Translations under genes and position numbers: made by a program | Part shown: positions 1 to 31,642 of the stretch, piece after piece | Layout of the letters: each line of letters opens with the position of its first letter | Numbering within the stretch: the first letter of the stretch is position 1 | The notes under the pieces: generated by a model | Database searches by the model: none | What the model saw: only the letters and a program-made list of their open reading frames with translations | Told to the model about the DNA's origin: nothing | Assembly: GCF_023055435.1 (NCBI RefSeq) | Contig: NW_025964383.1 | Location: forward strand, 36,642,001 to 36,706,000 | Reading direction: 5' to 3' | Source of the DNA: Haliotis rufescens | Taxonomy: Eukaryota | Length of the DNA stretch: 64,000 bases

Positions 1-858
1 CGTGTTTATTTACTGTAGATGACAAAGTCCGACATTTGTCGTGAATCTCGTGAAGTTATCTGTAAACAGCGCGCTGAATGTTCAACTTAGTTTCGCCAGT
101 TTGTCAATTCGGTCTTTTGTGTGACTCATAGCGGAATAAATATACTGTAAAACTATATGTATGTGAATTCTAAATGAATTTTATACAAAGTTACATGGTT
201 TGATGAACAAATAAACATCAAATAAAACAATTTTTGACAAACCTTTGTTCCGCCCTGTTGCTGTGATATGGTAGTCAGACGTCAAAGTTCTTTGCAGAAA
301 TATTTACACAATTTCATGTTTAAACTACCACTGTGTGGATTCTAAACTCCTCTTGTACAATATAGAATACAATGAAACAGAAAACTAAGACAAGTGAAGA
401 CATTTTGACATTTGTCCAGACAACAGACAACACATGAACAGATAACTTCTATGTCCGCTTCAGTCACTTTCACAGTCAGCACGTCACACGGGGCGGGGAG
501 GCTGTGCCGTGTCCTGGCGGGGAATGGCGGGATGTGCCGTTATAACTGCACGTTTGGGGATTCTAAATGATTGTTACACATAATTACAAACACCAAACCT
601 ATATATTTCTACATTTGTTTTATCAACGTTGTTTTGTCAATCTATCTACACTGATGTGTTATAAAACAGACACAGTTTGATTGTAAAATAATACATCATA
701 TTCATATCGCCTGATTTAACCTATCTCTGAGATGATATTTGTTTGTACTAATGTGTTTGTAAAGAAAGCAGCGACTGTGCCAGGTCATACATATTAACTA
801 TTGCAAACAAGTTCATTTGTTTTGTACCATCGCGAAAGTATTTTTTGTTACTCTCTTC
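1..858. repeat. Segmental duplicate of 3738-4522 (intron immediately upstream of the B30.2 exon)
   Basis: Near-identical at offset 3737. This copy carries about 74 extra bp (447-520). Identity ends at ctctcttc (858/4522). Confidence 0.95.
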
Positions 859-1035
859 GCCACACTCAGCAATGTTCCAGCTATATGACGGTGGCCCGTA
901 AATAGTCGAGTCTAGACCAGACAATCGAGTGATTGATATCATGAGCATCGATCTATGCAATTTGGAGTCAACCACGTATTAGTCACCTCTTACGACAGCA
1001 TGGGTTGCTGAAGACCAATTTTAGCTCGGATCATC
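859..1035 (-). mobile_element. SINE fragment (family A), tail-truncated
   Basis: Matches the copies at 1880-2080, 30163-30410 and 55468-55730. Confidence 0.8.
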
Positions 1036-1879
1036 ACATAAGCTACCACAATAATAACAGGTTTAAAAAGTGAATAATTTCATACTTTAAAGTATACACT
1101 GTTTCTTTCATGCTGATTGGCTGAATGGGTAGTCATGTGATCCGATATTTGGAGTTCACACATCTGTGAACGGACAGAAAAGTTCCCAGGATGTTAACAA
1201 TTTTTGTGTGAAATTGATCCTGTGAACTTTTGCCAGAAGTACTTTCCAAAGTTTCCCGAATTCTCGTTCGGTGTTTACAATTAACTTGTTTTTCTTTTTT
1301 CTTTTTAATCCCTGCATTTATCAGACATATAATTAATTTAGTATTTTACGTCTGCTACATGAAACAAAATCGATTGTCCTTACGGTGATTTGGATATGGA
1401 ATGGTTATTTATCAATACTAATAAACAAGTGAAGAAAATGAATTCTGTAAACTTACTGAGGTGAGCGAAATTGATTTATTGAAGGATATTGACTTTGATG
1501 CCTTGTTTCGGAAATGACAGGAATCTAGCACCAAAGAATTGCAAATGACTTGAATGTTGTACCCTGCTCAGATGTGGCCGTCGACACAGATCAAAGCGAC
1601 TGTTCCTGATCAATCCCAAACTAAAACCTGATTCACAATCGTATCAGAAAAAAACAAACTACAAGACTTTGAGAAACCAAGACACAGCAAATCTACAATG
1701 AAAAACACTAAATTAATAGGCTCTGAAAGTGTTCAATGGTAAGCCAAATAATTTTTTTCTAGCTTTTAAAAATATAAGACATAAAAAAGGTAAGGAACAA
1801 AATTTGAAATAAAAAAACAACCCAAAAACTTGCCTCGATCTAGCGATCTACCTGTTTTACCGATTGGTCATCGGAGACG

Positions 1880-2080
1880 GTTGGTTTGTTGTTTAACGCC
1901 GCACTATTCCAGCTTTATGACGGGAGTCTGTACATAACCGAGTCTGAAGCAGACAATCCAGTGCTTAATATCATGAGCATCGATCCACGCAATTGGGATA
2001 CGATGACATGCATCAACCAAGTCAGCGAACCTGACCACCCGATCCCGTTAGTCGCCTCTTACGTCAAACATAGTCGCCTT
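1880..2080 (-). mobile_element. SINE (family A), partial
   Basis: (aaac)n-type tail; core similar to ttgtcgtaagaggcgactaacgggatcgggtggtcagg on the minus strand. Confidence 0.85.
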
Positions 2081-3033
2081 GTCATCAGAGACGAGAAAAT
2101 GCCCGTTGACGGAACTACTAGTCCGGTTTCTGAGTTGGTCGACCTTCTTCGTGTGCGTATTCTAGGCCGAGAAGCGGCGGCACATGAGGAAGGACGGGGC
2201 ACAGAAACGAAGCTGGCATCAGGTAAGCAAAGTATTACAGCATACACGACAAATCCCAAACTCCAAATATAACACACCTTGACCTTGAAAATTAACACAA
2301 AACACGCGAGTTTCAGAGCACTCCGTTCAATCCCCACCAGTTCACATTCCACAAGGCGCTGGTGAAACTTAAACACAGTTTAACCAGCGCTTTTAAATTG
2401 TTGACACTTCAATGAACCCATCCAAACTGATGTTCAGTTCTTAAATACATGTGTAATCTACAGGCAAGTGAAGTGAAATAAAGAAATCTGTTGTCAATCT
2501 TGTGCTCTCGCACGCATGTCATGATCAGAGAACCACACACTGTGTCATATTTTAAGCTGCTACAAAAACATTCTGATGATGAAACTATTAATGTTTCGAT
2601 TCAAAACAGTTATAATTCACAGGCAAGTGATGTGAAATGAAGAAAATTGCTATTTGAAACATTTTTTGTAAAACTTCACTTCACTAATTTTCATATCACA
2701 TCACTCTCAAAACATCACACAGTGTCTCATGTTGGAAGTCACTACAGCAATAATTTCAACATAAAGATAGTCATGTGAGAATTCTAAATACTTTGTATAC
2801 ACTGTACAACCCTCTCGTGCAGCAAAACATCACATTTTGCAAACTTCGTTACTGTTTGTGAACATGAAATAACATAGAAACCAGACACTTATATGTCCGC
2901 TTCTCTCAGTTCGTACACGTCATTGAAACAGTTGATATATCTCTCTCAGTTACACCAGAAACCATACAATAATCTATTATATGGTCTCTGGTTACACTGA
3001 TAACTTCACACAGTCTCATGTCTTGTTTATTTC

Positions 3034-3707
3034 CTATGTCAGCGCGTCATGAATCAGTGACATCTTGGTGTCAGTGATGGCGATGTTGTCCCCGCTGATC
3101 AGCTCCATGTTGACAGTGCAGAAATCAGAAACACCTAACACGGGGTACAGGTCTTGCCGGAACCTCTCATCAAACTTCGCTAAAACAATCCCTCTGTTGA
3201 GATCAATGAAGGCGAGTCTGTCCCTCCCCACATCCAGCACCACGCCATAGTGGAGGGTGGCCTGTGTGCCGCGAGTGAATGACATGGTGTTCTGGTGACA
3301 CTTGCCCCGCTCCCCCTCCCGCCACACCACGGTACAGAGACTCTTCCCGTGTCTGCCACAGCTCGCTACACGGACACCCCAGGAGCGACGCTGTAGAGAA
3401 ACCCACCGCCCACTGTCCACCTGTCCTGCCTCTACCACCCCCATCTCCAGGATATACCACTCTCCCCCACTCACCACCCGCACCCTAGTGCGTGTCTCCC
3501 AGTATCTGGGTGTGCTGTATCCCGGGGTGGGAGCGGTGTGGGGTGGAGAAAGGGGGATGGGGGTGGAGGCACAGGTCCCCATATACTCCTGTAGCCTGCG
3601 CCTGTCATGTGACCGTGTGTCGAGCTCCGAGTTGACCAGCTCACTGTCTGTAGTTACGTGGCACGCCTCTGTGTTGGCTCGAGCGGCGTCCAGATGTAGT
3701 TTAGGAC
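3034..3707 (-). CDS. Terminal exon (19 of 19 reconstructed) encoding a PRY-SPRY/B30.2 domain
   Basis: Lies within ORF 3034-3762. Acceptor tctatatttccag|GTCCTAAA (phase 1). Motifs LHLDAARAN (PRY-like), YWETR, LEMGVV, SWGV and YGVVLDVGRDRLAFIDL...F...LYPVLGV match the B30.2 pattern YWEV...IGV.LD...G.LSFY...LYP. Stop TAG is followed by AATAAA at 3031-3026. Confidence 0.88.
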
Positions 3708-4822
3708 CTGGAAATATAGATGGTGTTTGTTGTGTGACGTGTTTATTTACTGTAGATGACAAAGTCCGACATTTGTCGTGAATCTCGTGAAGTTATCTGT
3801 AAACAGCGCGCTGAATGTTCAACTTAGTTTCGCCAGTTTGTCAATTCGGTCTTTTGTGTGACTCATAGCGGAATAAATATACTGTAAAACTATATGTATG
3901 TGAATTCTAAATGAATTTTATACAAAGTTACATGGTTTGATGAACAAATAAACATCAAATAAAACAATTTTTGACAAACCTTTGTTCCGCCCTGTTGCTG
4001 TGATATGGTAGTCAGACGTCAAAGTTCTTTGCAGAAATATTTACACAATTTCATGTTTAAACTACCACTGTGTGGATTCTAAACTCCTCTTGTACAATAT
4101 AGAATACAATGAAACAGAAAACTAAGACAAGTGAAGACATTTTGACATTTGTCCAGACAACAGACAACACATGAACAGATAACAGGAATGGCGGGATGTG
4201 CCGTTATAACTGCACGTTTGGGGATTCTAAATGATTGTTACACATAATTACAAACACCAAACCTATATATTTCTACATTTGTTTTATCAACGTTGTTTTG
4301 TCAATCTATCTACACTGATGTGTTATAAAACAGACACAGTTTGATTGTAAAATAATACATCATATTCATATCGCCTGATTTAACCTATCTCTGAGATGAT
4401 ATTTGTTTGTACTAATGTGTTTGTAAAGAAAGCAGCGACTGTGCCAGGTCATACATATTAACTATTGCAAACAAGTTCATTTGTTTTGTACCATCGCGAA
4501 AGTATTTTTTGTTACTCTCTTCTGATGTGTTTCACGTTTCGCATCTTCATATATGTTTACTGAGTTACACACATAACAATAATAATATCAAATTTCGTGT
4601 TTAAAGAGTTGGTTGTTAACACAACATATTTATTTACATAAACGTTTAATATACTCATGTTCATAATTATAGTCACCCCTATACAAAGACGCTTATATGT
4701 TAAGGGGGGGGGGGGGGGGGGGGGGGGGCATTACTTAATTATATTCACCCCTATACAAAGACGCTAATGTCGGGGGGTGGAGGAGCAATGGTGTTAATAA
4801 TGATAGTGTCCCTTATACAAAG

Positions 4823-4965: not shown

Positions 4966-4990
4966 ATCCCCCCATCCCCCCACCCCCCCA

Positions 4991-7900
4991 TGTATGTGTG
5001 TGTAACAAACTGCAACATCGCCGACTGTATGGAATGTATGTGTGTGTAACCACCTGCAACATGGCTGACTGTATGGAATGTATGTGTGTGTAACAAACTG
5101 CAACATCGCCTACTGTATGGAATGTATGTGTGTGTGTGTGTGTGTCTAACCACCTGCAACATCGCCAACTGTATGGAATGTATGTGTGTGTAACAAACTG
5201 CAACATCGTTGACTGCATGGAATGTATGTGTGTGTGTAACCACCTGCAACATCGCCGACTGTATGGAATGTATGTGTGTGTAACCACCTGCAACATCACC
5301 GACTGTATGAAATGTACGTGTGTGTAATCACCTGCAACTTGGCCGACTGTATGAAATGTATGTGTGTGTAACCACCTGCAAAATCGCTGACTGTATTGAA
5401 TATATACGTGTGTTACCACGTGCAACGTTGCCGACGACATTGAATGTACGTGTGTGTAACCAACTGCGATATCGCCGACTATATCGGATGTATGTGTGTG
5501 TAACCACCTGCAAGATCGCCGACTGTATGGAATGTATGTGAGTGTAATCACCTGCAACATCGCCGACTGTATGAAATGTATGTGTGTGTAACCACCTGCA
5601 ACATCGCCGACTGTATGGAATGTATGTGTGTGTAACCACCTGCAACATCGCCGACTGTATGGAATGTTTGTGTGTGTAACCACCTGCAAGATCGCCGACT
5701 ATATGGGATGTATGTGTGTGTAACCACGTGCAACCTTGCCGACGACATTGAATGTACGTGTGTGTAACCAACTGCGACATCGCCGACTATATCGGATGTA
5801 TCTGTGTGTAACCACCTGCAAGATCGCCGACTGTATGGAATGTCTGTGTGTGTAACCGCCTGCAACATCACTGACTGTATGGAATGTATGTGTGTGTAAC
5901 CGCCTGCTACATCGCTAACTGTATGGAATGTATGTGTTTGTAAGCGCCTGCAACATCGCTGACTGTATGGAATGCGTATGTGTGTGTAACCACCTGCAAC
6001 ATCACTGACTGTATGGAATGTACGTGTGTGTAACAACCTGCAACATCGCCGACTGTATGGAATGTATGTGTGTGGAGCCACCTGCAACATCGCCGACTGT
6101 ATGGAATGCATGTGTGTGTAACCACCTGCAACATCGCCGACTGTATAAAATGTATGTATGCGTAACCACCTGCAACATAGCCGACTGTATCGAATGTGTA
6201 TGTGTGTCGTCACCTGCAACATCGCCTACTGTAGGGAATGTGTGTGTGTGTATGTAACCACCTGCAACATCGCCTACTGTAGGGAATGTGTGTGTGTGTA
6301 TGTAACCACCTGCAACATCGCCGACTGTATGGAATGTGTGTATGTAACCACCTGCAACATCGCCGACTGTATGGAATGTATGTGTGTGTAACCAACTGCA
6401 ACATGGCTGACTGTATGGAATGTCTGTGTGTGTGTGTGTAATCACCTGCAACATCACCGACTGTATGAAATGTATGTATGCGTAACCACCTGCAACATAG
6501 CCGACTGTATGGAATGTGTATGTGTGTCGTCACCTGCAACATCGCCTACTGTATGGAATGTACGTGTGTGTAACCACCTGCAACATCGCCGATTGTATGG
6601 AATGCGTATGTGTGTGTAACCACCTGCGACATCGTCGATTGTGTGGAATGTGTGTGTATGTAACCACTAGCAACAACGACGATTGTATGGAATGCGTGTG
6701 TATGTAACCACTAGCAACATGGACGATTGTATGGAATGTAGGGAATGAATGTGTGCGTAACCACCTGCAACATCGCCGACTGTATGGAATTTACGTGTGT
6801 GTAATCACCTGCAACATCGCCTACTGTATGGAATGTACGTGTGTCTAACCACCTGCAACATCGCCGTTTGTATGGAATGCGTATGTGTGTGTAACCATCT
6901 GCAACATCGCCGACTGTATGGAATGTATATATATTTGTGTAATCACCTGCAACATCGCCGACAGTATGAAATGTACGTGTGTGGAGCCACCTGCAACATC
7001 GCCGACTGTATGGAATGTATGTGTGTGGAGCCACCTGCAACATCGCCGACTGTATGGAATGTATATATATTTGTGTAATCACCTGCAACATCGCCGACAG
7101 TATGAAATGTACGTGTGTGGAGCCACCTGCAACATCGCCTACTGTATGGAATGTATGTGTGTGGAGCCACCTGCAACATCGCCGACTGTATGGAATGTAT
7201 GTGTGTGTAACCACCTGCAACATCGCCGACTGTATGAAATGTATGTATGCGTAACCATCTGCAACATCGCCGACTGTAGGGAATGTGTGTGTGTGTATGT
7301 AACCACCTGCAACATCGCCGACTGTATGGAATGTGTGTATGTAACCACCTGCAACATCGCCGACTGTATGGAATGTATGTGTGTGTAACCAACTGCAACA
7401 TCGCCGACTGTAGGGAATGTGTGTGTGTATGTAACCACCTGCAACATCGCCGACTGTATGGAATGTGTGTATGTAACCACCTGCAACATCGCCGACTGTA
7501 TGGAATGTATGTGTGTGTAACCAACTGCAACATGGCTGACTGTATGGAATGTGTGTATGTAACCACCTGCAACATCGCCGACTGTATGGAATGTATGTGT
7601 GTGTAACCAACTGCAACATGGCTGACTGTATGGAATGTGTGTATGTAACCACCTGCAACATCGCCGACTGTATGGAATGTATGTGTGTGTAATCAACTGC
7701 AACATCACCGACTGTATGAAATGTATGTATGCGTAACCACCTGCAACATAGCCGACTGTATGGAATGTGTATGTGTGTCGTCACCTGGAACATCGCTAAC
7801 TGTATGGAATGTACGTGTGTGTAACCACCTGCAACATCGCCGATTGTATGGAATGCGTATGTGTGTGTAACCACCTGCGACATCGCCGATTGTGTGGAAT

Positions 7901-10900
7901 GTGTGTGTATGTAACCACTAGCAACAACGGCGATTGTATGGAATGTGTGTGTATGTAACCACTAACAACATCGCCGACTGTATGGAATGTATATATATGT
8001 GTGTAATCACCTGCAACATCGCCGACAGTATGAAATGTACGTGTGTGTAACCGCCTGCAACATCGCCGACTGTATGGAATGTGTATGTGTGTCGCCACCT
8101 GCAAACTCGCCGACTGTATGGAATGTATGTGTCCGTAACAAACTGCAACATCGCCGACTGTATGGAATGTATGTGTGTGTAACCACCTGCAACATCGCCG
8201 ACTGTATCAAATGTATGTGTGCGTAACCACCCGCAAAATCGCTGACTGTATAGAAAGTATATGTGTGTAACCACGTGCAACTCTGCCGACAACATTGAAT
8301 GTACGTGTGTGTAACCAACTCCGACATCGCCGACTGTATGGGATGTACGTGTGTGTAACCGCCTTCAAAATCGCCGACTGTATATTGTATGTGTTTGAAC
8401 CAACTGCAAGATCGCCAACTGTATGGAATGTATGTGTGTGTAACCACGTGCAACTTTCCCGACGACATTGAATGTACGTGTGTGTAACCAACTGCAACAT
8501 CTCCGACTGTATGGGATGTATGTGTTTCCAACCACGACCAACGTGCGATGCATTTATGAGTAACAACTAGCAACATTTACGATTGTAAGAAATATGTGTG
8601 TATGTAACCACTAGCAACATTTACGATTGTATGGAATGTGTGTGTATGTAACCACTAGCAACATGGACGATTGTAAGGAATATGTGTGTATGTAAGCACT
8701 AGCAACATGGACGATTGTATGGAATGTGTGTGTATGTAACCACTAGCAACATGGACGATTGTATGGAATGTGTGTGTATGTAACCACTAGCAACATGGAC
8801 GATTGTATGGAATGTAGGGAATGAATGTGTGCGTAACCACCTGCAACATCGCCGACTGTATGGAATTTACGTGTGTGTAATCACCTGCAACATCGCCGAC
8901 TGTATGGAATGTACGTGTGTCTAACCACCTGCAACATCGCCGTTTGTATGGAATGCGTATGTGTGTGTAACCACCTGCAACATCGCTGACTATATGGAAT
9001 GTATGTGTGTGTAACCACCTGCAACATCGCTGACTATATGGAATGTATGTGTGTGTAACCGCCTGCAACATCGCTGACTATATGGAATGTATGTGTGTGG
9101 AGGCACCTGCAACATCGCCGATTGTATGGAATGTATATATGTGTATGTAAACACCTCGGCATCGCCGATTGTATCAAATGTATATGTGTGTAACCACCTG
9201 CAACATCGCCGACTGTATGGAATGTGTATGTGTGCGTAAGCACCTGCAACATCGCCGAGTGTATGGAATGTATATATGTGTATGTAATCACCTGCAACAT
9301 CGCCGACTGTATGGAATGTATGTGTGTATAACCACCTGCAACATCGCCGACTGTATGGAATGTATGTGTGTATAACCACCTGCAACATCGCCGACTGTAT
9401 GGAATGTATATATGTGTATGTAATCACCTGCAACATCGCCGACTGTATGAAATGTATGTGTGCGTAACCACCTGCAACATCGCCGACTGTATGAAATGTA
9501 TGTGTGTATAACCACCTGCAACATCTCCGACTATATCGGATCTATGTGTTTCCAACCACGACCAACGTGCTATGCATTAATGAGTAACCACTAGCAACAT
9601 TTACGATTGTAAGGAATATTGTGTGTATGTAAGCACTAGCAACATTTACGAATGTATGGAATGTTGGTGTGTATGTAACCACTAGCAACATCGACGATTG
9701 TAAGGAGTATGTGTGTATGTAAGCACTAGCAACATCGACGATTGCATGGAATCTTGGTGTGTATGTAACCACTAGCAACATGGAAGATTGTAAGGAATAT
9801 GTGTGTATGTAAGCACTAGCAACATCGACGATTACATGGAATGTTGGTGTGTATGTAACCACTAGCAACATCGACGATTGTATGGAATGTGTGTGTACCC
9901 ACTAGCAACATGGAGGTTTGTATTAAATGTGTGTATATGTAACCACTAGCAACATGGACGATTGTATTAAATGTGTGTATATGTAACCACTAGCAACATG
10001 GACGATTGTATGGAATGTATGTGTATGTAACCACTAGCAACATGGACGATTGTATGGAATGTGTGTGTGTATGTAACCACTAGCAACATCGACGATTGTA
10101 TGGAATGTGTGTGTATGTAACCACTAGCAACATCGACGATTGTATGGAATGTGTGTGTAACCATTAGCAACATGGACGATTGTATGGAATGTATGGAATG
10201 AATGTGTGCGTAACCACCTGCACATCGCCGACTGTATGGAATGTACGTGTGTGTAATCACCTGCAACATCGCCGACTGTATGGAATTTACGTGTGCGTAA
10301 ACACCTGCACATCGCCGACTGTATGGAATGTACGTGTGTGTAATCACCTGCAACATCGCCGACTGTATGGAATTTACGTGTGTGTAATCACCTGCAACAT
10401 CGCCAACTGTATGAAATATATGTGTGCGTAACCACTAGCAACATCACTGACTGTATGGAATGTATGTGTGTGTAACCACCTGCAACATCGCCGACTGTAT
10501 CGAATTTACGTGTGTCTAATCACCTGCAACATCGCCTTCTGTATGAAATATATGTGTGCGTAACCACCTGCAACATCGCCGACTGTATGGAATGTACGTG
10601 TGTCTAACCACCTGCAACATCGCCGTTTGTATGGAATGTATGTGTGTGTAACCACCTGCAACATCGCCGACTGTATGGAATGTTCGTGTGTGTAATCACC
10701 TGCAACATCGCCGACTGTATGGAATGTATGTGTGTGTAACCACCTGCAACATCGCCGACTGTATGGAATGTATGTGTGTCTAACCACCTGCAACATCGCC
10801 GACTGTATGGAATGTATGTGTGTGTAATCACCTGCAACATCGCCGACTGTATGGAATGTATGTGTGTGTAACCACCTGCAACCCTGCCGTTTGTATGGAA

Positions 10901-13900
10901 TGTATGTGTGTGTAACCACCTGCAACATCGCCGACTGTATGGAATGTTCGTGTGTGTAATCACCTGCAACATCGCCGACTGTATGGAATGTATGTGTGTC
11001 TAACCACCTGCAACATCGCCGACTGTATGGAATGTATGTGTGTGTAACCGCCTCCAACATCGCCGACTATATGGAATGTATGTGTGTGTAACCACCTGCA
11101 ACATCGCCGTTTGTATGGAATGTATGTGTGTGTAACCACCTGCAACATCGCCAACTGTATGGAATGTTCGTGTGTGTAATCACCTGCAACATCGCCGACT
11201 GTATGGAATGTTCGTGTGTGTAATCACCTGCAACATCGCCGACTGTATGGAATGTTCGTGTGTGTAATCACCTGCAACATCGCCGACTGTATGGAATGTA
11301 CGTGTGTCTAACCACCTGCAACATCGCCGTTTGTATGGAATGTATGTGTGTGTAACCACCTGCAACATCGCCAACTGTATGGAATGTTCGTGTGTGTAAT
11401 CACCTGCAACATCGCCGACTGTATGGAATGTTCGTGTGTGTAATCACCTGCAACATCGCCGACTGTACCGAATGTACGTATGTCTAACCACCTGCAACAT
11501 CGCCGACTGTATGAAATGTACGTGTGCAGAACCGCTTGCAACATCACCGACTGTATGGAATGTATGTGTGTGTAACCGCCTGCAACATCGCCGACTGTAT
11601 GGAATGTTCGCGTGTGTAATCACCTGCAACATCGCCGACTGTATGGAATGTTCGTGTGTCTAACCACCTGCAATATCGCCGTTTGTATGGAATGTACGTG
11701 TGTCTAACCACCTGCAACATTGCCGTTTCTATGGAATGTATGTGTGTGTAACCACCTGCAACAACGCCGACTGTATGGAATGTATGTGTGTGTAACCACC
11801 TGCAACAACGCCGACTGTATGGAATGTATGTGTGTGTAACCACCTGCAACATCGCCGACTGTATGGAATGTTCGTGTGTCTAACCACCTGCAACATCGCC
11901 GTTTGTATGGAATGTATGTGTGTCTAACCACCTGCAACATCGCCGTTTCTATGGAATGTATGTGTGTGTAACCACCTGCAACAACGCCGACTGTATGGAA
12001 TGTATGTGTGTGTAACCACCTGCAACATCGCCGATTATATGGAATTTACGTGTGTGGAATCACCTGCAACATCGCCGACTGTAGGGAATTTACGTGTGTG
12101 TAATCACCTGCAACATCGCCTACTGTATGGAATGTATGTGTGTCTAACCACCTGCAACATCGCCGACTGTATGGAATGTATGTGTGTGTAACCACCTGCA
12201 ACATCGCCGACTGTATGGAATGTATGTGTGTCTAACCACCTGCAACATCGCCGACTGTATGGAATGTATGTGTGTGTAATCACCTGCAACATCGCCGACT
12301 GTATGGAATGTATGTGTGTGTAACCACCTGCAACCCTGCCGTTTGTATGGAATGTATGTGTGTGTAACCACCTGCAACATCGCCAACTGTATGGAATGTT
12401 CGTGTGTGTAATCACCTGCAACATCGCCGACTGTATGTAATGTGTGTGTGTCTAACCACCTGCAACATCGCCGACTGTATGGAATGTATGTGTGTGTAAC
12501 CGCCTCCAACATCGCCGACTATATGGAATGTATGTGTGTGTAACCACCTGCAACATCGCCGTTTGTATGGAATGTATGTGTGTGTAACCACCTGCAAAAT
12601 CGCCAACTGTATGGAATGTTCGTGTGTGTAATCACCTGCAACATCGCCGACTGTATGGAATGTTCGTGTGTGTAATCACCTGCAACATCGCCGACTGTAT
12701 GGAATGTTCGTGTGTGTAATCACCTGCAACATCGCCGACTGTATGGAATGTACGTGTGTCTAACCACCTGCAACATCGCCGTTTGTATGGAATGTATGTG
12801 TGTGTAACCACCTGCAACATCGCCAACTGTATGGAATGTTCGTGTGTGTAATCACCTGCAACATCGCCGACTGTATGGAATGTTCGTGTGTGTAATCACC
12901 TGCAACATCGCCGACTGTACCGAATGTACGTATGTCTAACCACCTGCAACATCGCCGACTGTATGAAATGTACGTGTGCAGAACCGCTTGCAACATCACC
13001 GACTGTATGGAATGTATGTGTGTGTAACCGCCTGCAACATCGCCGACTGTATGGAATGTTCGTGTGTGTAATCACCTGCAACATCGCCGACTGTATGGAA
13101 TGTTCGTGTGTCTAACCACCTGCAATATCGCCGTTTGTATGGAATGTACGTGTGTCTAACCACCTGCAACATTGCCGTTTCTATGGAATGTATGTGTGTG
13201 TAACCACCTGCAACAACGCCGACTGTATGGGATGTATGTGTGTGTAACCACCTGCAACAACGCCGACTGTATGGAATGTATGTGTGTGTAACCACCTGCA
13301 ACATCGCCGACTGTATGGAATGTTCGTGTGTCTAACCACCTGCAACATCGCCGTTTGTATGGAATGTATGTGTGTCTAACCACCTGCAACATCGCCGTTT
13401 CTATGGAATGTATGTGTGTGTAACCACCTGCAACAACGCCGACTGTATGGAATGTATGTGTGTGTAACCACCTGCAACATCGCCGATTATATGGAATTTA
13501 CGTGTGTGGAATCACCTGCAACATCGCCGACTGTAGGGAATTTACGTGTGTGTAATCACCTGCAACATCGCCTACTGTATGGAATGTATGTGTGTCTAAC
13601 CACCTGCAACATCGCCGACTGTATGGAATGTATGTGTATGTAACCGCCTCCAACATCGCCGACTATATGGAATGTATGTGTGTGTAACCACCTGCAACAT
13701 CGCCGTTTGTATGGAATGTATGTGTGTGTAACCACCTGCAACATCGCCAACTGTATGGAATGTTCGTGTGTGTAATCACCTGCAACATCGCCGACTGTAT
13801 GGAATGTTCGTGTGTGTAATCACCTGCAACATCGCCGACTGTATGGAATGTTCGTGTGTGTAATCACCTGCAACATCGCCGACTGTATGGAATGTACGTG

Positions 13901-16900
13901 TGTCTAACCACCTGCAACATCGCCGTTTGTATGGAATGTATGTGTGTGTAACCACCTGCAACATTGCCAACTGTATGGAATGTTCGTGTGTGTAATCACC
14001 TGCAACATCGCCGACTGTATGGAATGTTCGTGTGTGTAATCACCTGCAACATCGCCGACTGTACCGAATGTACGTATGTCTAACCACCTGCAACATCGCC
14101 GACTGTATGAAATGTACGTGTGCAGAACCGCTTGCAACATCACCGACTGTATGGAATGTATGTGTGTGTAACCACCTGCAACATCGCCGACTGTATGGAA
14201 TGTTCGTGTGTGTAATCACCTGCAACATCGCCGACTGTATGGAATGTTCGTGTGTCTAACCACCTGCAATATCGCCGTTTGTATGGAATGTACGTGTGTC
14301 TAACCACCTGCAACATTGCCGTTTCTATGGAATGTACGTGTGTGTAACCAACTGCAACATCTCCGACTGTATGGGATGTATGTGTTTCCAACCACAACCA
14401 ACGTGCGATGTAATTATGAGTAACAACTAGCAACATTTACGATTGTAAGGAATATCTGTGTACGTAAGCACTAGCAACATCGAAGATTGAATGGAATGTG
14501 TCTGTATGTAACCACTAGCAACATCGACGATTGTATGGAATGTGTGTGTATGTAACCACTAGCAATATCGACGATTGCATGAAATGTGTGTGTATGTAAC
14601 CACTAGCAACATCGACGATTGTATGGAATGTGTGTGTATGTAACCACTAGCAACATCGACGATTGTATGGAGTGTGTGTGTATGTAACCACTTGCAACAT
14701 CGACGATTGTATGGAATGTGTGTGTATGTAACCACGTGCAACATCGACGATTGTATGGAATTTGTGTGTATGTAACCACCAGCAACATCGACGATTGTAT
14801 GGAATGTGTGTGCATGTAACCGCTAGCAACATCGACGATTGTATGGAATGTCTCTCCATATAACCACTAGCAACATCGACGATTGTATGGAATGTGTGTG
14901 TATATAACCACTAGCAACATCGACGATTGTATGGAATGTGTATGTATGTAACCACGTGCAACATGGACGATTGTATGGAATGTGTGTGTATGTAACCACT
15001 TGCAACATCGACGATTGTATTGAATGTGTGTGTGTAACCACTTGCAACATGCACGATTTTATGGAATGTGTATACATATAACCACTAGCAACATCGACGA
15101 TTGTATGGAATGTGTGTGCATGTAACCACTAGCAACATCGACGATTGTATGGACTGTGTGTCTATGTAACCACTTGCAACATCGACGATTGAATGGAATG
15201 TGTGTGTATGTAACCACAAGCAACATCGACGATTGTATGGAATGTGTGTGTGTATGTACCCACTAGCAACATCGACGATTGTATGGAATGTGTGTGTATA
15301 ACCACTAGCAACATCGACGATTGTTTGGAATATGTGTGTACGTCAAAACTTGCAACATCGACGATTGTATGCAATTCCTTTGTATGTAAGCACTAGCAAC
15401 ATCGACGATTGTATGGGATGTGTGTGTGCATGTAACCACTAGCAACATCGACGATTCTATGGGATGTGTGTGTGCATGTAACCACTAGCAACATCGACGA
15501 TTGTATGGAATGTGTGTGTGTATGTAACCACTAGCAACATCGACGATTGTATGGAGTGTGTGTGCGTGTATGTAACCACTAGCAACATCGACGATTGTAT
15601 GGGATGTGTGTGTGTATGTAACCACTAGCAACATCGACGATTGTTTGGAATGTGTGTGCGTGTATGTAACCACTAGCAACATCGACGATTGTATGGGATG
15701 TGTGTGTGTATGTAACCACTAGCAACATCGACGATTGTATGGAGTGTGTGTGCGTGTATGTAACCACTAGCAACATCGACGATTGTATGGGATGTGTGTG
15801 TGTATGTAACCACTAGCAACATCGACGATTGTATGGGATGTGTGTGTGTATGTAACCACTAGCAACATCGACGATTGTATGTGATGTGTGTGTGTATGTA
15901 ACCACTAGCAACATCGACGATTGTATGGGATGTGTGTGTGCATGTAACCACTAGCAGCATCGACGATTGTATGGAATGTGTGTGCGTGTATGTAACCTCT
16001 AGCAACATCGACGATTGTATGGGATGTGTGTGTGTATGTAACCACTAGCAACATCGACGATTGCATGGAATGTGTGTTTATGTAACCACTAGCAACATAG
16101 ACGATTGTATGGAGTGTGTGTGTATGTAACCACTAGCAACATGGACGATTGTGTTAATTGTGTGTGTATGTAACCACAAGCAACATCGACGATTGTATGG
16201 AATGTGTGTGTATGTAACCACTTGCAACACCGGCGATTGTATGGCATGTGTGTGTATGTAACCACTAGCAAAATCGTCGATTGTATGGAATATCTGTGTA
16301 TGTAACCACTTTCAACATCGACGATTGTATGCAATGCATTTGTGAGTAACCACTAGCAACATCGACGATTGTATGGAATGTGTGTATGTAACCACTAACA
16401 ACATCGACGATTTTATAGGGCGGATTTGTATGTAACCACTAGCAACATGTACGATTGTATTGAATATGTGTGTATTTAACAACTTGCAACATCGACGATT
16501 GTATGCAATTCATTTGTGAGTAACCACTAGCAACATCGACGATTGTATGGAATGTGTGTGTGCATGTAACCACTAGCAACTTCAACGATTGTATGGAATG
16601 TGTGTGTATGTAACCACTAGCAACATCGACGATTGTATGGAATGTGGGTGTTTGTAACCACTCGCAACATCGACGATTGTATGGAATATGTGTGTATGTA
16701 GCCACTAGCAACATCGACGATTGTATGGGATGTGTGTGTGCATGTAACCACTAGCAACATCGACGATTGTATGGAATATGTGTGTATGTAACCACTTGCA
16801 ACATCGACGATTGTATGCAATGCATGTGTGAGTAACCACTAGAAACATCGACGATTGTATGGAATGTGTGTGTGTGTAACCACTAGCAACATCCACGTTT

Positions 16901-19900
16901 GTATGGAATGTGTGTGTATGTAACCACAAGCAACATCGACGATTGTATGGAATGTGTGTGTATGTAACCACTAACAACATCGACGAATTTATAGGGCGGA
17001 TTTGTAAGTAATCACTAGCAACATGGACGATTGTATGGAATGTATGTGTATGTAACCACTTGCAACATCGACGATTGTATGGAATGTGTGTGTGAATGTA
17101 ACCACTAGCAACATCGACGATTGTATGGAATGTGTATGTATGTAACCACTAGCAACATGGACGATTGTATGGAATGTGTGTGTATGTAACCACTTGCAAC
17201 ATCGACGATTGTATGGAATGTGTGTGCATGTAACCACGTGCAACATCGGCGATTGTATGGAATGTGTGTGTATGTAACCACTAGCAACATCGACGATTAT
17301 ATGGAATGTGTGAGCATGTAACCACTAGCAACATCGACGATTGTGTGGAATGTGTGTGTGTAACCACTTGCAACATGCACGATTTTATGGAATATGTATA
17401 CATATAACCACTAGCAACATCGACGATTGTATGGAATGTGTCTCCATGTAACCACTAGCAACATGGACGAATGTATGGAATGTCTGTGTATGTAACCACT
17501 TGCAACATCGACGATTGTATGGACTGTGTGTCTATGTAACCACTAGCAACATCGACGATTGTATGGAATGTGTATGTATGTTACCACTAGCAACATCGAC
17601 GATTGTATGGAATATGTGTGTGTGTGTAACCACTTGCAACATCCACTATTGTATGCGCTGCATTTGTGAGTATCCACCAGCAACATCGACGATTGTATGG
17701 AATGCATTTGTAAGTAACCACTAGCAACATCGACGATTGTATGGAATGTGTGTGTATGTAACCACTTGCAACATCGACTATTGAATGCGCTGCATTTGTG
17801 AGTTTTCATCTGCAACGTCAATGATTGTATGCGAAGAATGATGCATTTCTGAGTAACCACCTGCAACATCGATGATTGTACGTGATTTATTTGTGAGTAA
17901 TCAAAAGGGAACATCGACGATTTTATGTGATTTATTTGTGAGTAATCACGATTGTATGGAATGTGTCTCCATGTAACGACTTGCAACATCGACGAATGTA
18001 TGGAATGTCTGTGTATGTAACCACTTGCAACTTTAACGATTGTATGGAATATGTGTGTATGTAACCACTAGCAACATCGACGATTGTATAGAATGTGTGT
18101 GTATGTAACCACTAGCAACATCGACGATTGTATGGAATGTGTGTGTGTATAACCACTTGCAACATCCACTATTGTATGCGTTGCATTTGTGAATATCCAC
18201 CAGCAACATCGACGATTGGATGGAATGCATTTGTGAGTAACCATTAGCAACATCGACGATTGTATGGAATGTGTGTGTATGTAACCACTTGCAACATCGA
18301 CTATTGTATGCGATGCATTTGTGAGTAACCATCTGCAACATCGATGATTGTATGCGAGGAATGATGCATTTCTGAGTAACCACCTGCAACATCGATGATT
18401 GTACGTGATTTATTTGTGAGTAATCAAAAGGGAACATCGACGATTTTATGTGATTTCTTTGTGAGTAATCACCTGCAACAACAAGGATTGTATGTGATTT
18501 ATTTGTGAGTAATCACCTGGAACATAGAGGATTGTATGTGATTTATTTGTGAGTAACCACCTGCAACATCTACGAATGTATTCAATTCATTTGAGGGTAT
18601 CCATCTACAAGATCGATGATCATATGTGAAACATTTTTGAGAAATCGCTAGGAACATCGATGATTGTATCGAATGTTTAATGATGTATCCACCTTCAACA
18701 TCGACGATTGAATGCAATGCATTTGTGAGTAGTCACCTGCAATATCGACGATTGAATGCAATGCATTTGTGAGTAGTCACCTGCAATATCGACGATTTTA
18801 TGCAATACATTTGTGAGTAGTCACCTGCAATATCGACGATTTTATGCAATGCATTTGTGAGTAGTCACCTGCAATATCGACGATTTTATGCAATGCATTT
18901 GTGAGTAGTCACCTGCGACAATGATGATTGTGTGCGATGCATTTATGAGTAATAGCTTGCAAACATTGACGATTGAATGCGATGCATTTGTGAGGAACCA
19001 CCTGCAATATCGATGAGTGTATCACTTGTGTGTGTATGTATGATCGATGATTGAATGCGATGCATTTGTTAGTAACAACCTGGAACATCGATGATTGTAT
19101 GGAATGCATTTGTGAGTTATCACCTGGAACATCGATGATTGCATGCAAAGCATTTGTGAGTAAGCACCTGCAACATCGATTATTGTATGCAATGCATTTG
19201 TGAGTAATAGCTGGCAATATATTTGATGGTATGCGATTAATTTGTGGGTAATCACCTGCAACGTCGACATTTGCATGCAATGCATTTGTGAGTAGCTACT
19301 TGCAACATCGACGATTGTATGCAATACATTTGTGACTCATCACCTGCAACAACGACGATTTTTTGCAATGCATTTGTGAGTAACTACTATCAAAGTCGAT
19401 AATTGAATGCGCTGCATTTGTGAGTAACCACCTGCAATATCGACCATTGTATGCGTTTGTGAGTAACCACCTGCAACATCGATGATTTTGTGAAATGCAT
19501 TTGTGAGTAACCACTAGCAACATCGACCATTGTATGCGATGCATTTGTGAGGAACCACCTGCAATATCGATTATTGTATGCATTTGTGAGTAGGAACCTG
19601 CAATATTGATGATTGTGTGCAATGCTTTTGTGAGTAACCACCTGCAATATCGATAATTGTATGCATTTCTGAGTAGGAACCTGCAACATCGATGATTGTG
19701 TGCAATGCATTTGTGAGTAACCACCTGCAACATCAATGATTGTATGTGATCATTTGTGAGTTATCATCTGGAATATCGATGACTGTTTTGATTGAGTGTG
19801 TTTGTTACCACCACCAGCATCGATGATTGCACGCAATACATTTGTGCGTATCACTAGCAAATATCAATGATTGAATTCGATGTATTTGTGAGTAATCACC

Positions 19901-22418
19901 TGCAATAGCGATGATTGTACGCGATACATTTGTGCGTATCACTAGCAAACATCAACGATTGAATGCGATGCATTTGTGAGTAACCACCTGCAACATCAAT
20001 TATTGTATGTGATACATTTGTGAGTAATCACCTGCAATATCGATGACTGTATTGATTGAGTGTGTTTGTAACCACCATAGCATCGATGATTGCACGCGAT
20101 ACATTTGTGCGTATCACTAGCAAATATCAATGATTGAATGCGATGTATTTGTGAGTAATCACCTGCAATATCAACGATTGAATGCGATGCATTTGTGAGT
20201 AACCACCTGCAACATCAATGATTGTATGTGATACATTTGTGAGTAATCACCTGCAATATCGATGACTGTATTGATTGAGTGTGTTTGTAACTACCAGCAG
20301 CATCGATGATTGTACGCGATAAATTTGTGCGTATCACTAGCAAATATCAATGATTGAATGCGATGCATTTGTGAGTAATCACCTGCAATAGCGATGAGTG
20401 TACGCGATACATTTGTGCGTATCACTAGCAAATATCAACGATTGAATGCGATGCATTTGTGAGTAATCACCTGCAATATCGATGATTGTATTAACTGTGT
20501 GCGTATGTGATCACCTACAACATCGATGATTGTATCCGATGCATTTGTGACTAACCACAAGGAACATCGACGAATGGATGCGATGCATTTGTGAGTAACC
20601 ATTAGCAACGTCGATTATTATATTTTATGTTTAATTGTATAACCACCTGCAACATCGACGATTGTATGCGATGCATTATTGAGCAACCACATGAAACATC
20701 GACAATTGTATGCAATGCATTTATGAGTAACCACCTGCAAAATCGATGATTGTATGCAATTTATTTGTGAGTAACAACCTGGAACATCTATGATTGAATG
20801 CAATGCATTTGTGAGTAACCACAAGGAACATCAACGAATGGATGCGATGCATTTGTGAGTAACCACAAGCAGCATCGATTATTGTATTTAATGTTTAATT
20901 GTATAACCACCTGCAACATCGACGATTGTATGCGATGCATTTATGAGTAACCACCTGCAACATCGATGATTGTATACAATGCATTTGTGTGTAATAGCTG
21001 GCAATATATTTGATGGTATGCGATGAATTTGTGAGTAATCACCTGCAACGTCGACATTTGCATGCAATGGATTACTGAGCAACCACATGAAACATCGACA
21101 AGTGTATGCAATGCATTTATGAGTAGCCACCTGCAATATCTATGATTGTATGCAATGCATTTGTGAGTAAGCACATGCAACATCGACGATTGTATGCAAA
21201 GCATTATTGAGAAACCACATGAAACATCGACAATTGTATGCAATGCATTTATGAGTAACCACCTGCAACATCGATGATTGTATGCAATGCATTTGTGTGT
21301 AATAGCTGGCAATATATTTGATGGTATGCGATGAATTTGTGAGTAATCACCTGCAACGTCGACATTTGCATCCAATGCATTTGTGAGTAGCTACTTGCAA
21401 CATCGACGATTGTATGCAATACATTTGTGACTCATCACCTGCAACATCGACGATTTTTTGCAATGCATTTGTGAGTAACTACTATCAAAATCGATAATTG
21501 TATGCGCTGCATTTGTGAGTAACCACTAGCAACATCGACCATTGTATGGGATGCATTTGTGAGGAACCACCTGCAATATCGATTATTGTATGCATTTGTG
21601 AGTAGGAACCTGCAATATTGATGATTGTATGCAATGCTTTTGTGAGTAACCACCTGCAATATCGATTATTGTATGCATTTCTGAGTAGGAACCTGCAACA
21701 TCGATGATTGTATGCAATGCATTTGTGAGTAACCACCTGCAACATCAATGATTGTATGTGATACATTTGTGAGTTGTCATCTGGAATATTGATGACTGTT
21801 TTGATTGAGTGTGTTTGTAACCACCAGCAGCATCGATGATTGTACGCGATACATTTGTGCGTATCACTAGCAAATATCAATGATTGAATGCGATGCATTT
21901 GTGAGTAATCTCCTGCAATAGCGATGATTGTACGCGATACATTTGTGCGCATCACTAGCAAATATCAACGATTGAATGCGATGCATTTGTGAGTAATCAC
22001 CTGCAATATCGATAACTGCATTGATTGAGTGTGTTTGTAACCACCAGAAGCATCGATGATTGTATGCAATGCATTTGTGAGTAACCACCTGCAACATCAA
22101 TGATTGTATGTGATACATTTGTGAGTTGTCATCTGGAATATTGATTACAGTTTTGATTGAGTGTGTTTGTAACCACCTGCAGCATCGATGATTGTACGCG
22201 ATACATTTGTGCGTATCACTAGCAAATATCAATGATTGAATGCGATGCATTTGTGAGTAATCTCCTGCAATAGCGATGATTGTACGCGATACATTTGTGC
22301 GCATCACTAGCAAATATCAACGATTGAATGCGATGCATTTGTGAGTAACCACCTGCAACATCGATGATTGTATGGAATGTTTAATGGTGTAGCTACCTGT
22401 AACATCGACGACTGTATA
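4991..22418. repeat. 17.4-kb satellite array with ~44-bp monomer (gtaaccacctgcaacatcgccgactgtatggaatgtatgtgtgt), three variant domains and higher-order repeats
   Basis: Directly visible; roughly 390-400 monomers by length. Near-identical ORF-track peptides recur at offsets 1452 and 1144. Confidence 0.98.
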
Positions 22419-25047: not shown

Positions 25048-25405
25048 ACTTACATACAACCTCAAGAGAGGATGGTCCCACCACATACACAGGCCCATTC
25101 AGTGCTGAAACAATCAGAATATTTTACTGCCAACACACAACCTGAAGAGAGGATGGCCCCACCAAATACACAGGCCCATTCAGTGCTGAAACAATCAGAA
25201 TATATTACAGCCTACACACAACCTGTAGAGAGGATGGTCCCACCAAATACACAGGCCCGTTCAGTGCTGAAACAATCAGAATATATTGCTGCCTACACAC
25301 AACCTGAAGAGAGGATGGCCCCACCAAATACAAAGGCCCATTCAAAGCTGAAACAATCAGAATATATTACTGTCCTACACACAACCTGAATAGAGGATGG
25401 TTCCA
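25048..25405. repeat. 81-bp minisatellite, ~4.4 copies
   Basis: acaacctgaagagaggatgg...cagaatatattac recurs every 81 bp. Confidence 0.93.
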
Positions 25406-25622
25406 CTGAACACTTAGTCTCATTTAGAGCTGACACAAACGGAATACATAACATTGTACAACTTGATATTGGTGATACTATATTATGTAATGATATCATT
25501 AATATTTAATAAATTAAAACAGTATATTAACAGACGAATCGTTACAGATTCAATATCCACGCAATGAGGTCAACACGCATTAGCAGTAGCTGACGTTCAC
25601 GAACATTGTAAGGAGGACTCAC

Positions 25623-25662
25623 CTTGTAAAGAGGCGAGGTGGTCTTCATCATCGACAATCAT
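25623..25662 (-). CDS. Exon 18, 40 nt, phase 0->1 (MIVDDEDHLASLQ-G)
   Basis: ttccatttggtcag|...CAAG|gtgagt. Phase fits exon 17 and the B30.2 exon. Confidence 0.78.
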
Positions 25663-29456: not shown

Positions 29457-29563
29457 GTTTCCTATGATGTCAAACAGGTCACTCTCCTTCAGCAACCCCT
29501 GTTGAAACCGCCTCAGCTTGGCAATCTGACTTCTCTTCACATGCCTCTGGTGGCTTTCATCTT
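29457..29563 (-). CDS. Exon 17, 107 nt, phase 1->0 (E-DESHQRHVKRSQIAKLRRFQQGLLKESDLFDIIGN)
   Basis: tatattttatcag|...AAAC|gtaaga. Open frame; similar to exon 57970-58073. Confidence 0.82.
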
Positions 29564-30162
29564 CTGATAAAATATAGAATGGCATTGTGGGTAGAAAGAA
29601 GAAGCTGAATCACATAGATAGAATTCTTAAACAAATATGGATATTATTATCATTGGGATGTGGCACTCAAAGTTTGCTTAGGACAACACATATATTGGTC
29701 AACAACATGATTATCAAACTTTAACTTGACCATGTTTTGGTAACCCATCACACAACAAATTTGGCTTTCACGCACTGTGCGTGAAGGGAAATCAGTGTGT
29801 ATACAAATATTCTACATCAACAATGTCTGCTATATTAGTATGCTTGACTGTGCGATATCACAACTTAATGCTGTACGTGCTGCAGAGCATGGAATCGTTT
29901 CCAACTAATGCAGTCCTCAACGCAGCGGGAGGACAGGTTGCTGAAGAAATCCGTTCATGCCGGCAAACAGTCTCGTAAGCCGCACTAGTAAACATGTCAA
30001 GACAAGCAATGTGTTTTCAAGGAGATCTTCGTTCCTCCAGATCAAGTATCCCATAACATTGATTGGCATACACGGGCCCGTTTTGCCTGGTGTTGAGATA
30101 ACACCAACTGGACGGTGCTTGACTGGTCCCCGTTTCTCTTCACTAGTTGACTTCACAGAACC

Positions 30163-30410
30163 GACCCGTGAAGATCCGCGGTAGAATAGGTCTCCAGCAA
30201 CCCATCCTTGCCGTAATAGGCGACTATGCTTGTCGTAAGAGGCAACAAACGGGATCTGGTGGTCAGGCTCGCTGCAAGGTTGATGCATGTAATCGATTTC
30301 AATTTCGTTGATCGATGCTCATGATATTAATCACTGGACTGTGTGGTCAAGACTCGATTATTTACAGACCGCCGTCATAAAGCTGGAATATTGCTCAGTG
30401 CGGCGTAAAA
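30163..30410 (+). mobile_element. SINE (family A), sense on +
   Basis: gacccgtgaagatcc...ttgtcgtaagaggc...gctggaatattgctcagtgcggcgtaaaa; reverse complement of the other copies. Confidence 0.88.
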
Positions 30411-30685
30411 ACCCCGGTGTTGCGCAATGGTGTCAGGAGGCTAACGTTGCTAAGTGGGTCAGAAAAGGTCAGCAACGTTGGATGCACTGATCTCCATGTC
30501 CTTGAGGACAGCTGTTCCCTTCAAGGATGCCATTTGGGATATGTACAATCATTATCATTAGTGACTACGCAAATCCTCATCATGTCAGCGTTATGGACCA
30601 GTACTTGAATGATGACAGAATCGACCGTATTGTGTGGCCAGCTCGATCACCTGACCCGAGTCCGAGAGTACAGGTTTAGGACGTC

Positions 30686-31642
30686 CATTACACCACATCC
30701 CGCAGTTCCCCGTTATAGCTAGGCAGGTCCTGCTCAATGTTGCCATAACACCACGTCCTGCAGTTCCCCCGACATATAGAGGTCCTGCGTGGTGTTGCCA
30801 TTACACCACACCCTGCAGTTCCCCGATATATACAGGTCCTGCTTAGTGTTGCCATTACACCACACCCTGCAGTTCCCCGATATATACAGGTCCTGCTTAG
30901 TGTTGCCATTACACCACATCCGGCAGTTCCAAGATATATACAGGTCCTGCTTGGTGTTGCCATTACACCCATCCTGCAGTTCCCCGACATGTAGAGGTGT
31001 TGCCTAGTGTTGCCATTACACCCATCCTGCAGTTCCCCGATATATAGAGGTCCTGCTTAGTGTTGCCATTACACCACATCCTGCAGTTCCCCGATATATA
31101 CAGGTCCTGCTCGGTGTTGCCATTAGACCACATCATGCAGTTTCCCGATATATACAGGTCCTGCTTAGTGTTGCCATTACACCACATCCGGCAGTTCCAA
31201 GATATATACAGGTCCTGCTTAGTGTTGCCATTACACCACATCCGGCAGTTCCAAGATATATACAGGCCCTGCTTGGTGTTGCCATTACACCGCATCCTGC
31301 AGTTCCCCGACATATAGAGCTGTTGCCTAGTGTTGCCATTACACCCATCCTGCAGTTCCCCGATATATACAGGTCCTGCTTAGTGTTGCCATTACACCCA
31401 TCCTGCAGTTCCCCGATATATAGAGGTCCTGCTTAGTGTTGCCATTACACCACATCCTGCAGTTCCCCGATATATACAGGTCCTGCTTGGTGTTGCCAAT
31501 AGGCCACATCATGCAGTTCCCCGATATATTGAGGTCCTGCGTACTTTTGTCATTACACCACATCCTGCAGTTCCCCGATATATACAGGTTATGCTTTGTG
31601 TTGCCATTACACCACATCCTGCAGTTCCCCGATATATACAGG
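30686..31642. repeat. 54-bp minisatellite, ~17 copies
   Basis: Unit ccattacaccacatcctgcagttccccgatatatacaggtcctgcttagtgttg. Confidence 0.95.

Follow-up and report, generated by a model that had tools for sequence, protein, structure and literature searches.

Comparison with described systems

In Drosophila, the immune receptor PGRP-LC carries its recognition domains at its alternative ends. Together with pip and CG42235, it has been described as having tandemly duplicated terminal exons, which are mutually exclusive and share the 5' part of the gene (PMC9013439). Among expanded families of proteins ending in B30.2, variable loop sites and shuffling of B30.2 exons have been reported for teleost finTRIMs (PMC2657112), and the copy number of B30.2 exons is described as varying among individuals in teleost NLR-B30.2 genes (PMC11192531).

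Here, we analyzed a 64,000-base stretch of Haliotis rufescens DNA (the window) that includes the end of the gene LOC124139577. Our analysis indicates that the last-intron DNA of this gene was probably doubled by a very recent tandem duplication of a 3.7-kb unit carrying the last exon, and predicts a second, nearly identical B30.2-like exon 31 nt outside the window. Such an arrangement would follow the same logic as the Drosophila genes, with tandem alternative 3' exons behind a shared part. It differs in that the Drosophila exons, as described in the source above, are fixed, diverged and spliced, with competing RNA structures acting as the switch, whereas the abalone copy is predicted to be identical, is apparently rare, and has no splice seen. 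Teleost finTRIM and NLR-B30.2 genes, as presented in the cited accounts, diversify between whole genes and not through alternative last exons. The LOC124139577 protein (P0002) has no RING, B-box, or NACHT match, with no Pfam family at E ≤ 0.01, although its annotated N-terminus is perhaps incomplete; lacking RING or B-box, it was rejected as a TRIM protein.

Structure of LOC124139577

The exon at 3707-3034 on the minus strand is the end of LOC124139577, and the features of the gene within the window are the following:

3034..3707, minus strand: last coding exon, encoding the B30.2/PRYSPRY-like head (residues 501-723 of XP_048246365.1)
3708..3709, minus strand: splice acceptor AG, phase 1; at this boundary the depth of probable RNA runs drops from 884/1244 to 9/2 (a family-wide signal)
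3026..3031, minus strand: AATAAA, 2 nt past the TAG stop at 3036-3034
2450..3033, minus strand: likely 3' UTR, matched by probable-RNA contigs at 2687-3080 (X16) and 2451-2720 (X15/X16), from an allele or close paralog
4990..22374, no strand: 44-bp satellite (TRF), the bulk of the last intron, of which tandem repeat makes up 17,292 of 21,395 bases
25054..25429, minus strand: 51-nt phase-1 mini-exon in five tandem copies 81-82 bp apart, with AG and GT at each
25623..25662, minus strand: exon for residues 470-482, donor phase 1
29457..60497, minus strand: 18 further stalk coding exons for residues 107-469

Residues 1-106 of the protein had no match within the window. RefSeq lists one isoform and one protein for this gene, the sole member of its 90% cluster, and the stalk is rich in E, K, Q, and L. 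The original prediction had the exon at 25623 spliced to the B30.2 exon; RefSeq places the 51-nt mini-exon between them, with both joins in frame. The AATAAA was correctly placed right after the stop, at 3031-3026. It is crossed by a contig from a probable RNA run, so another poly(A) site is probably used as well.

The last exon encodes a B30.2/PRYSPRY-like head

By its predicted fold (pLDDT 77.2, pTM 0.79), the head is B30.2/PRYSPRY-like, a beta-sandwich matching solved PRYSPRY domains. All 31 Foldseek rows listed were chains containing PRYSPRY/B30.2, the best being MID1 (E = 2.3e-9, TM 0.75 by target length), which was also the best sequence-profile match (E = 0.0037). The best fold matches comprise the PRYSPRY domains of MID1/MID2, TRIM7, TRIM25, and TRIM65 (PDB 7qry, 9r11, 7y3a, 9iun, 7jl4). 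At 223 aa, the abalone head exceeds these domains in length and has a Pro-rich insert as well as a C-terminal helix; its identity to the solved PRYSPRY domains among the matches listed is 10-19%. The assignment of the last exon to B30.2 stands at the level of predicted fold but not of the Pfam SPRY profile, whose score lies below the cut-off (E = 0.018, 15.6 bits vs 26.3); PRY gave no match. Among 20 members of the head family, 17 had SPRY at E ≤ 0.05 (best 4.2e-5).

In database searches the head family was matched only in Haliotis (85, 22, and 54 matches), on several kinds of stalk, many of the other carriers having a B-box or CARD. A literature search, which missed most subscription papers, found no published account of an abalone B30.2 last-exon system, and the accessible part of an abalone structural-variation paper makes no mention of the head family (PMC12627906).

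Duplication of the last-intron segment

The features linked to the duplication are the following:

1..858, no strand: left copy (copy A) of a last-intron segment, reaching the window edge at 100% identity
447..520, no strand: 74-bp stretch of copy A that corresponds to one base (4184) in copy B; the 74-bp form is the one listed in other animals
858..859, no strand: putative duplication junction, with 1 bp of microhomology (C), no N gap, and a loose-end consensus before 858
859..4522, minus strand: putative duplication unit of 3,664 bp, with the intron end, last exon, 3' UTR, and flank, and without an upstream exon
859..1037, plus strand: high-copy SINE-like repeat lacking the left end of its other copies, with matches near 1901, 30301, and 55495
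3738..4522, no strand: right copy (copy B); contigs of three other runs bridge its join to 4523

Segments 1-858 and 3738-4522 show no substitution over 784 bp and a single 74-bp/1-bp indel, which confirms that 1-858 duplicates the intron directly upstream of the B30.2 acceptor. Identity holds across two blocks, 1-446 with 3738-4183 (446/446) and 521-858 with 4185-4522 (338/338), between which copy A has 74 bases (447-520) where copy B has a single one (4184). Copy A is still 100% identical where it is cut off at base 1. With the acceptor AG at 3709-3708 and the exon start at 3707, the equivalent exon start is predicted 31 nt to the left of base 1. A tblastn search with the 723-aa protein found no upstream exon in 1-3033, as had been noted for the 3.7-kb spacing, and the head had a single match in the whole window. 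The search for an older hidden duplication in 1-4700 returned short, weak matches only.

There are no N bases in the window, and the 858/859 join is gapless. It cuts through the repeat at 859-1037, which we label SINE-like from our own reading and which reached a depth above 450,000 in the contig comparison. Homologous recombination between repeats was rejected as the cause of the duplication, since the join shares only 1 bp. A non-homologous break with this 1 bp of microhomology may have created the unit, and copy B would have lost 73 bp during or after the duplication.

Contigs from other animals

Contigs from 6 of the 24 listed sequencing runs were compared with the window; these show presence, not absence, their depth is not copy number, and gaps in the cover of the exon by X15/X16 carry no weight. 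The 4522/4523 join is bridged by contigs of X1, X5, and X16. After 4183, the 74-bp form is found in X1, X5, and X15, and it is also spanned by contigs of X1 (449-805) and X2 (478-768). The 858/859 join was absent among the contig joins listed from other animals, as was the deleted form of copy B among the contigs listed from any other run, and none of the loose ends listed (19 of 24) leads from 4522 into the SINE-like repeat. The X1 contig over 4522/4523 has a depth of 5.2 beside 24.4, which points to another continuation unaccounted for, possibly the 858/859 join. Summed by hand over 10 listed pieces, some of them perhaps from paralogs, the contigs of other animals differ at 40 positions in 2,201 bp. 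In the first comparison, over 400-4200 at 90% likeness, matches to the high-copy repeat obscured the 858/859 join. Among the contigs listed, none was spliced to either last-exon copy, a weak result as contigs break there, and short reads cannot separate identical exon copies. Judging by its absence from the listings of two DNA and two probable RNA runs, the tandem copy is likely rare.

Origin and age of the duplication

A recent duplication and an uncollapsed haplotype had been considered equally possible. Heterozygosity in red abalone is given as 1.37% (PMC9709998), at which about 11 differences in 784 sites would be expected between two haplotypes; at this rate or at that of the contig pieces above (40 in 2,201 bp), the Poisson chance of observing none is 2e-5 or less, ignoring runs of homozygosity. 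Alleles tend to differ more than these two copies do, and the gapless join falls within a SINE-like repeat; the balance shifts toward duplication, leaving an uncollapsed haplotype at less than even odds. More generally, an assembly artefact in which one real copy is shown twice, by such a haplotype or by a false join, is unlikely, even though identity is perfect except for one indel, the 858/859 join and the deleted form are both missing from the listings for other animals, and the locus is rich in repeats (27,927 of the 64,000 bases are tandem repeat) and lies inside a paralog cluster. The window lacks N bases and the join resembles a real breakpoint, with its 1 bp of microhomology in a repeat, while an allelic copy would be expected to run into 4523-type sequence and not into the gene's own 3' flank.

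Slightly less probable still is that the duplicate is a mere fragment inserted in the repeat, ending before or within the exon and leaving no intact second exon. Its left extent lies beyond the window, single-head models do exist for other paralogs, and no second protein with this head occurs in the 90% cluster or among 22 matches of 123-392 aa (best 67%); an identical exon, however, could escape separate annotation. The direct orientation and a join at the exact start of the inter-copy segment fit tandem duplication of a whole unit. Moreover, a 620-nt X15 contig runs from the 74-bp form through the acceptor and 30 nt into the exon, although it falls one letter under the bridging rule and its 14 differences point to another allele or a paralog.

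It is improbable that splicing at LOC124139577 itself selects between two functional last exons that encode different heads: both joins are phase-compatible, paralogs are annotated with such isoforms, and flanks can remain similar as heads diverge (up to residue 700, P0174/P0175 have 7 differences, and beyond it 42), but 0/784 divergence leaves little time for change, RefSeq has a single isoform, and the contigs listed hold no spliced join, weak as that result is.

Under the preferred reading of a very recent tandem duplication, the 0/784 result bounds copy divergence at about 0.4% (95%), or under 3 nt over the exon, and the second head is thus expected to be nearly identical. Our best reading is that the copied head adds no new specificity yet and that the locus is not yet a diversifier. 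By default, transcripts would end with the proximal exon and the 3' UTR that follows it; use of the distal copy would require both skipping of the proximal exon and read-through of its poly(A) site.

Annotated head swapping in related genes

The proposal that one rod could carry different heads is not supported at this locus (0/784, one RefSeq protein) and finds support at the level of the family. RefSeq isoforms include more than one head in 3 of 22 multi-isoform relatives, two of which switch exactly at the last-exon boundary, with the caveat that these models are automated and uncharacterized and that mis-mapping is possible. In LOC124151408 and LOC124118569 of H. rufescens and LOC124262332 of H. 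rubra, heads of the same family differ across isoforms that share an identical stalk. The exact switchers are LOC124151408 and LOC124262332, with heads 82-84% identical; in the isoform pairs P0124/P0125 and P0067/P0079, the stalk is identical up to the exon boundary and the heads are 82% and 84% identical. LOC124118569 was rejected as a clean precedent, as its isoforms swap 3' blocks of several exons and the gene model LOC124128539 shares one of its heads. With heads 79-84% identical across the three genes, their duplications would be old, unlike that of LOC124139577. Where paralogs are annotated with alternative, diverged heads, units such as the one described here would be a likely source of them.

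Heads diverge faster than stalks in this family. The closest paralog, LOC124113164, is identical at 111 of 118 residues over the last five stalk exons and at 170 of 223 in the head. In a comparison of 114 distinct heads, the columns of highest entropy are mostly located outside the predicted strands, and in five pairs 15-21 of 32-43 differences are at the 42 columns, out of 223, that vary most, these columns being defined on a set that includes the pairs. For a candidate immune role, the expansion of the family and the faster divergence of its heads are indirect indications only.

Implications

Taken alone, the locus is of modest weight, as a copy-number variant of recent origin within a gene cluster that changes fast. 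The larger lead is a Haliotis head family present on several kinds of stalk and annotated as swappable last exons in at least two genes. It is possible, and we suggest it only tentatively, that abalones have a modular recognition system, in which a B30.2 head encoded, along with a 3' UTR of its own, by one exon would undergo repeated tandem duplication downstream of stalks of TRIM-like, CARD-B-box, and orphan types, its loops would diversify, and splicing would pick one head per transcript, as in PGRP-LC, from over a hundred heads; the window would then hold a cassette at birth, and LOC124151408 and LOC124262332 mature ones. If long reads confirm the isoforms, alternative last exons would be shown to diversify recognition domains in a gastropod. 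If the scheme is true, the birth, mature, and orphan stages could be compared within one genus of conservation and aquaculture interest.

The last exon of LOC124139577 and its encoded domain

Our analysis placed the 3' end of the gene as follows:

3709-3708, minus strand, splice acceptor AG
3707-3034, minus strand, coding bases of the last exon
3031-3026, minus strand, AATAAA, right after the stop as originally noted

The 223 residues encoded by this exon are identical (100%) to the C-terminal end of XP_048246365.1 (uncharacterized protein LOC124139577, Haliotis rufescens, 723 aa), which carries no isoform label and is the sole member of its own 90% cluster. By exact peptide mapping, 21 exons between 60497 and 3037 account for residues 107-723, and residues 1-106 were not found in the window. 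For the last exon Pfam returned only a sub-threshold SPRY match, and the whole protein had no hit at E<=0.01; with no RING or B-box match, the protein as annotated does not qualify as a TRIM. A structure model of the exon's domain, hereafter the head (20-sequence alignment; pLDDT 77.2), matches the solved PRYSPRY domains of MID1, MID2, TRIM65, TRIM7, and TRIM25 (best E 2.3e-9), and these matches make the predicted fold of the head B30.2-like. Every hit in three homology searches came from Haliotis (85/85, 22/22, and 54/54), in searches that need shared words and that distant relatives outside Haliotis could escape. Several short gene models comprise little beyond one head; they are possibly orphan cassettes or fragments of genes.

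The penultimate 51-nt mini-exon is present as five tandem units 81-82 bp apart (25054-25429, minus strand), each with AG, GT, and an open phase-1 frame. Since the gaps of ~30 nt between units are likely too short to splice, the units may be included one at a time, in a mutually exclusive manner. The GTAAGT donor occurs only in the last unit, the RefSeq peptide corresponds to unit 3 or 4, and the equivalent mini-exon is skipped in some paralog isoforms. A 44-bp satellite (4990-22374; ~390 units, more degenerate at the right end) fills ~17 kb of the last intron, and a strongly A-skewed 67-bp tandem repeat (25762-27914; 32 copies, 98% identity) sits in the intron that precedes exon 25662. The 18-kb intron between the exons at 57798 and 39817 holds frames at 41152-45775 (minus) and 48515-53743 (plus) that resemble endonuclease and reverse-transcriptase regions from two stop-containing LINE-like elements; 48515-48889 is repeated near 49931-50380. 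Decayed retroelement-like sequence at 22400-24900 and 54909-55349 (minus) may be of DIRS/Ngaro type.

A probable young duplication at the last exon

Self-comparison of the first 5 kb identified two perfect blocks (1-446 = 3738-4183 and 521-858 = 4185-4522) with 0 substitutions across 784 aligned bases, bearing out the claim that 1-858 copies the intron upstream of the B30.2 acceptor. Between the blocks, 74 bases (447-520) in the left copy correspond to one base in the right copy. Base 1 is the counterpart of 3738, so an equivalent second exon would begin 31 nt before base 1, in agreement with the acceptor predicted ~30 bp before it. No upstream exon was found in 1-3033, in line with the claim that the 3.7-kb spacing contains none, and the head is found a single time within the window.

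The original prediction gave a recent duplication and an uncollapsed haplotype even odds; both readings are kept here, at unequal weight. Heterozygosity of the red abalone genome is reported as 1.37%, taken here as a species figure only (PMC9709998), and ten listed contig pieces from public runs over 3678-4640, filtered at 95% likeness and possibly including paralogs, differ from the window at 40/2,201 bases (0-3.9% per piece). These rates predict 11-14 differences between two haplotypes in 784 sites, and the Poisson probability of zero, leaving homozygous tracts out of account, is 2e-5 or less. Because no substitution was found and the join at 858/859 is gapless (the window has zero N bases), a real young duplication is well ahead of a haplotype artefact. 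We consider a newborn, nearly identical duplicate at the last exon probable, and an assembly artefact, whether haplotype copy or false join, rather unlikely. A duplicated fragment without an intact second exon is unlikely.

We compared contigs of public runs with the window. The best runs share at most 0.58 of sampled words, suggesting that they likely come from other animals; contigs show presence and cannot show absence, and the comparison over 400-4200 is dominated by a high-copy repeat. Of the two forms, other runs list the one with 74 bases (spanned by run X1 at 449-805 and run X2 at 478-768), and loose ends at 4183 in runs X1 and X5 continue into the 74-base stretch. A run X15 contig with this form runs past the acceptor and covers 30 nt of the exon; it has 14 differences from the window, and its exon overlap is one letter below the bridging rule. 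Under tandem duplication, the right copy would be the derived state, through a 73-bp loss. The right copy's outer join, 4522/4523, is bridged in runs X1, X5, and X16 and is therefore likely the older join. No loose end at 4522 entering the 859 sequence was found among the 19 listed of 24 loose ends. Position 859 sits within a SINE-like repeat of very high copy number, which lacks its usual left end at this site, and one base is shared at 858/859; this is the layout expected if 859-4522 was duplicated in tandem through a non-homologous break. The limits of the contig comparison weigh against this reading, as does a run X1 contig across 4522/4523 (4440-4640), whose depth is 5.2 vs 24.4 just left; the difference points to another continuation in run X1, which is not among the matches listed.

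Predicted use of a putative second exon

Zero differences in 784 bound copy divergence at 0.38% (95%), or ~2.6 nt across the exon, and given this bound the predicted second exon would likely encode a head that is identical or nearly so. With so little room for change, a working two-head switch at LOC124139577 itself is very unlikely. The proposal that one rod carries different B30.2 heads is thus not supported at this gene, which has a single RefSeq isoform; it survives in the annotation of 3/22 multi-isoform relatives. The exon joins are compatible in phase.

In two probable RNA runs, depth across 3707/3708 drops from 884 to 9 and from 1244 to 2, a family-wide signal. Contigs of these runs extend past AATAAA (a run X16 contig, 2687-3080, crosses it with 9 differences), and the 3' UTR therefore likely reaches at least 2450, on contigs that are possibly alleles or a close paralog. 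No spliced join was found among the matches listed in the runs' contigs. Whole-unit tandem duplication would give a second exon, near-identical and rare; the proximal exon would be the default choice, and the distal copy would be usable only by proximal-exon skipping and read-through of the proximal poly(A) site. Such a newborn unit may be linked to the older alternative heads of relatives.

Head variation across the abalone family

We compared RefSeq isoforms of 24 genes with at least two isoforms, a sample of what the fetched clusters returned rather than a census, and dropped two with incomplete heads; three of the remaining 22 are annotated with more than one head. Isoforms X4 and X1 of LOC124151408 share their whole sequence ahead of the last exon, the earliest substitution being at residue 816 of 1040, and have heads of 82% identity; isoforms X1 and X2 of H. 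rubra LOC124262332 follow the same pattern (84%). No other protein of the compared set was found to carry either alternative head (nearest 83% for P0125, from the LOC124151408 pair, and 87-89% for the H. rubra pair). The third gene, LOC124118569, has three heads, but multi-exon blocks are switched and one head recurs, over 258 identical C-terminal residues, in gene model LOC124128539, making chimeric annotation across neighbours a real risk.

LOC124139577 and LOC124113164 share 111/118 residues in the last five stalk exons (those upstream of the head) vs 170/223 in the head, and the proteins P0174 and P0175 have 7 differences in 700 stalk residues vs 42 after; between genes, heads change faster than stalks. 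P0174 (LOC125377448) and P0175 (LOC124148561) belong to CARD-B-box genes with 82% identical heads, a pattern of either fast head divergence or head exchange. In a set of 114 distinct heads, most of the variable columns fall outside the predicted strands. Two further head carriers, P0015 and P0025, show P-loop NTPase-like matches (nSTAND_NTPase5 at a sub-threshold score), and the head is thus carried by at least three stalk kinds: B-box, CARD-B-box, and NTPase-like or orphan.

PGRP-LC swaps recognition domains. In Drosophila pip, PGRP-LC, and CG42235, terminal exons are described as tandemly duplicated and mutually exclusive (PMC9013439), finTRIMs as combining B30.2 exon shuffling with loop diversification (PMC2657112), and zebrafish NLRs as varying in B30.2 exon copy number (PMC11192531). 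Abalone structural variation is covered in general terms (PMC12627906), and the titles and abstract openings searched describe neither this family of abalone heads nor B30.2 last exons used as alternatives. A family-wide head-swapping system in abalones, beyond LOC124139577, is a tentative proposal, on balance doubtful. The class of mechanism is already known, and the abalone family would add a new member to it if the paralog isoforms hold.
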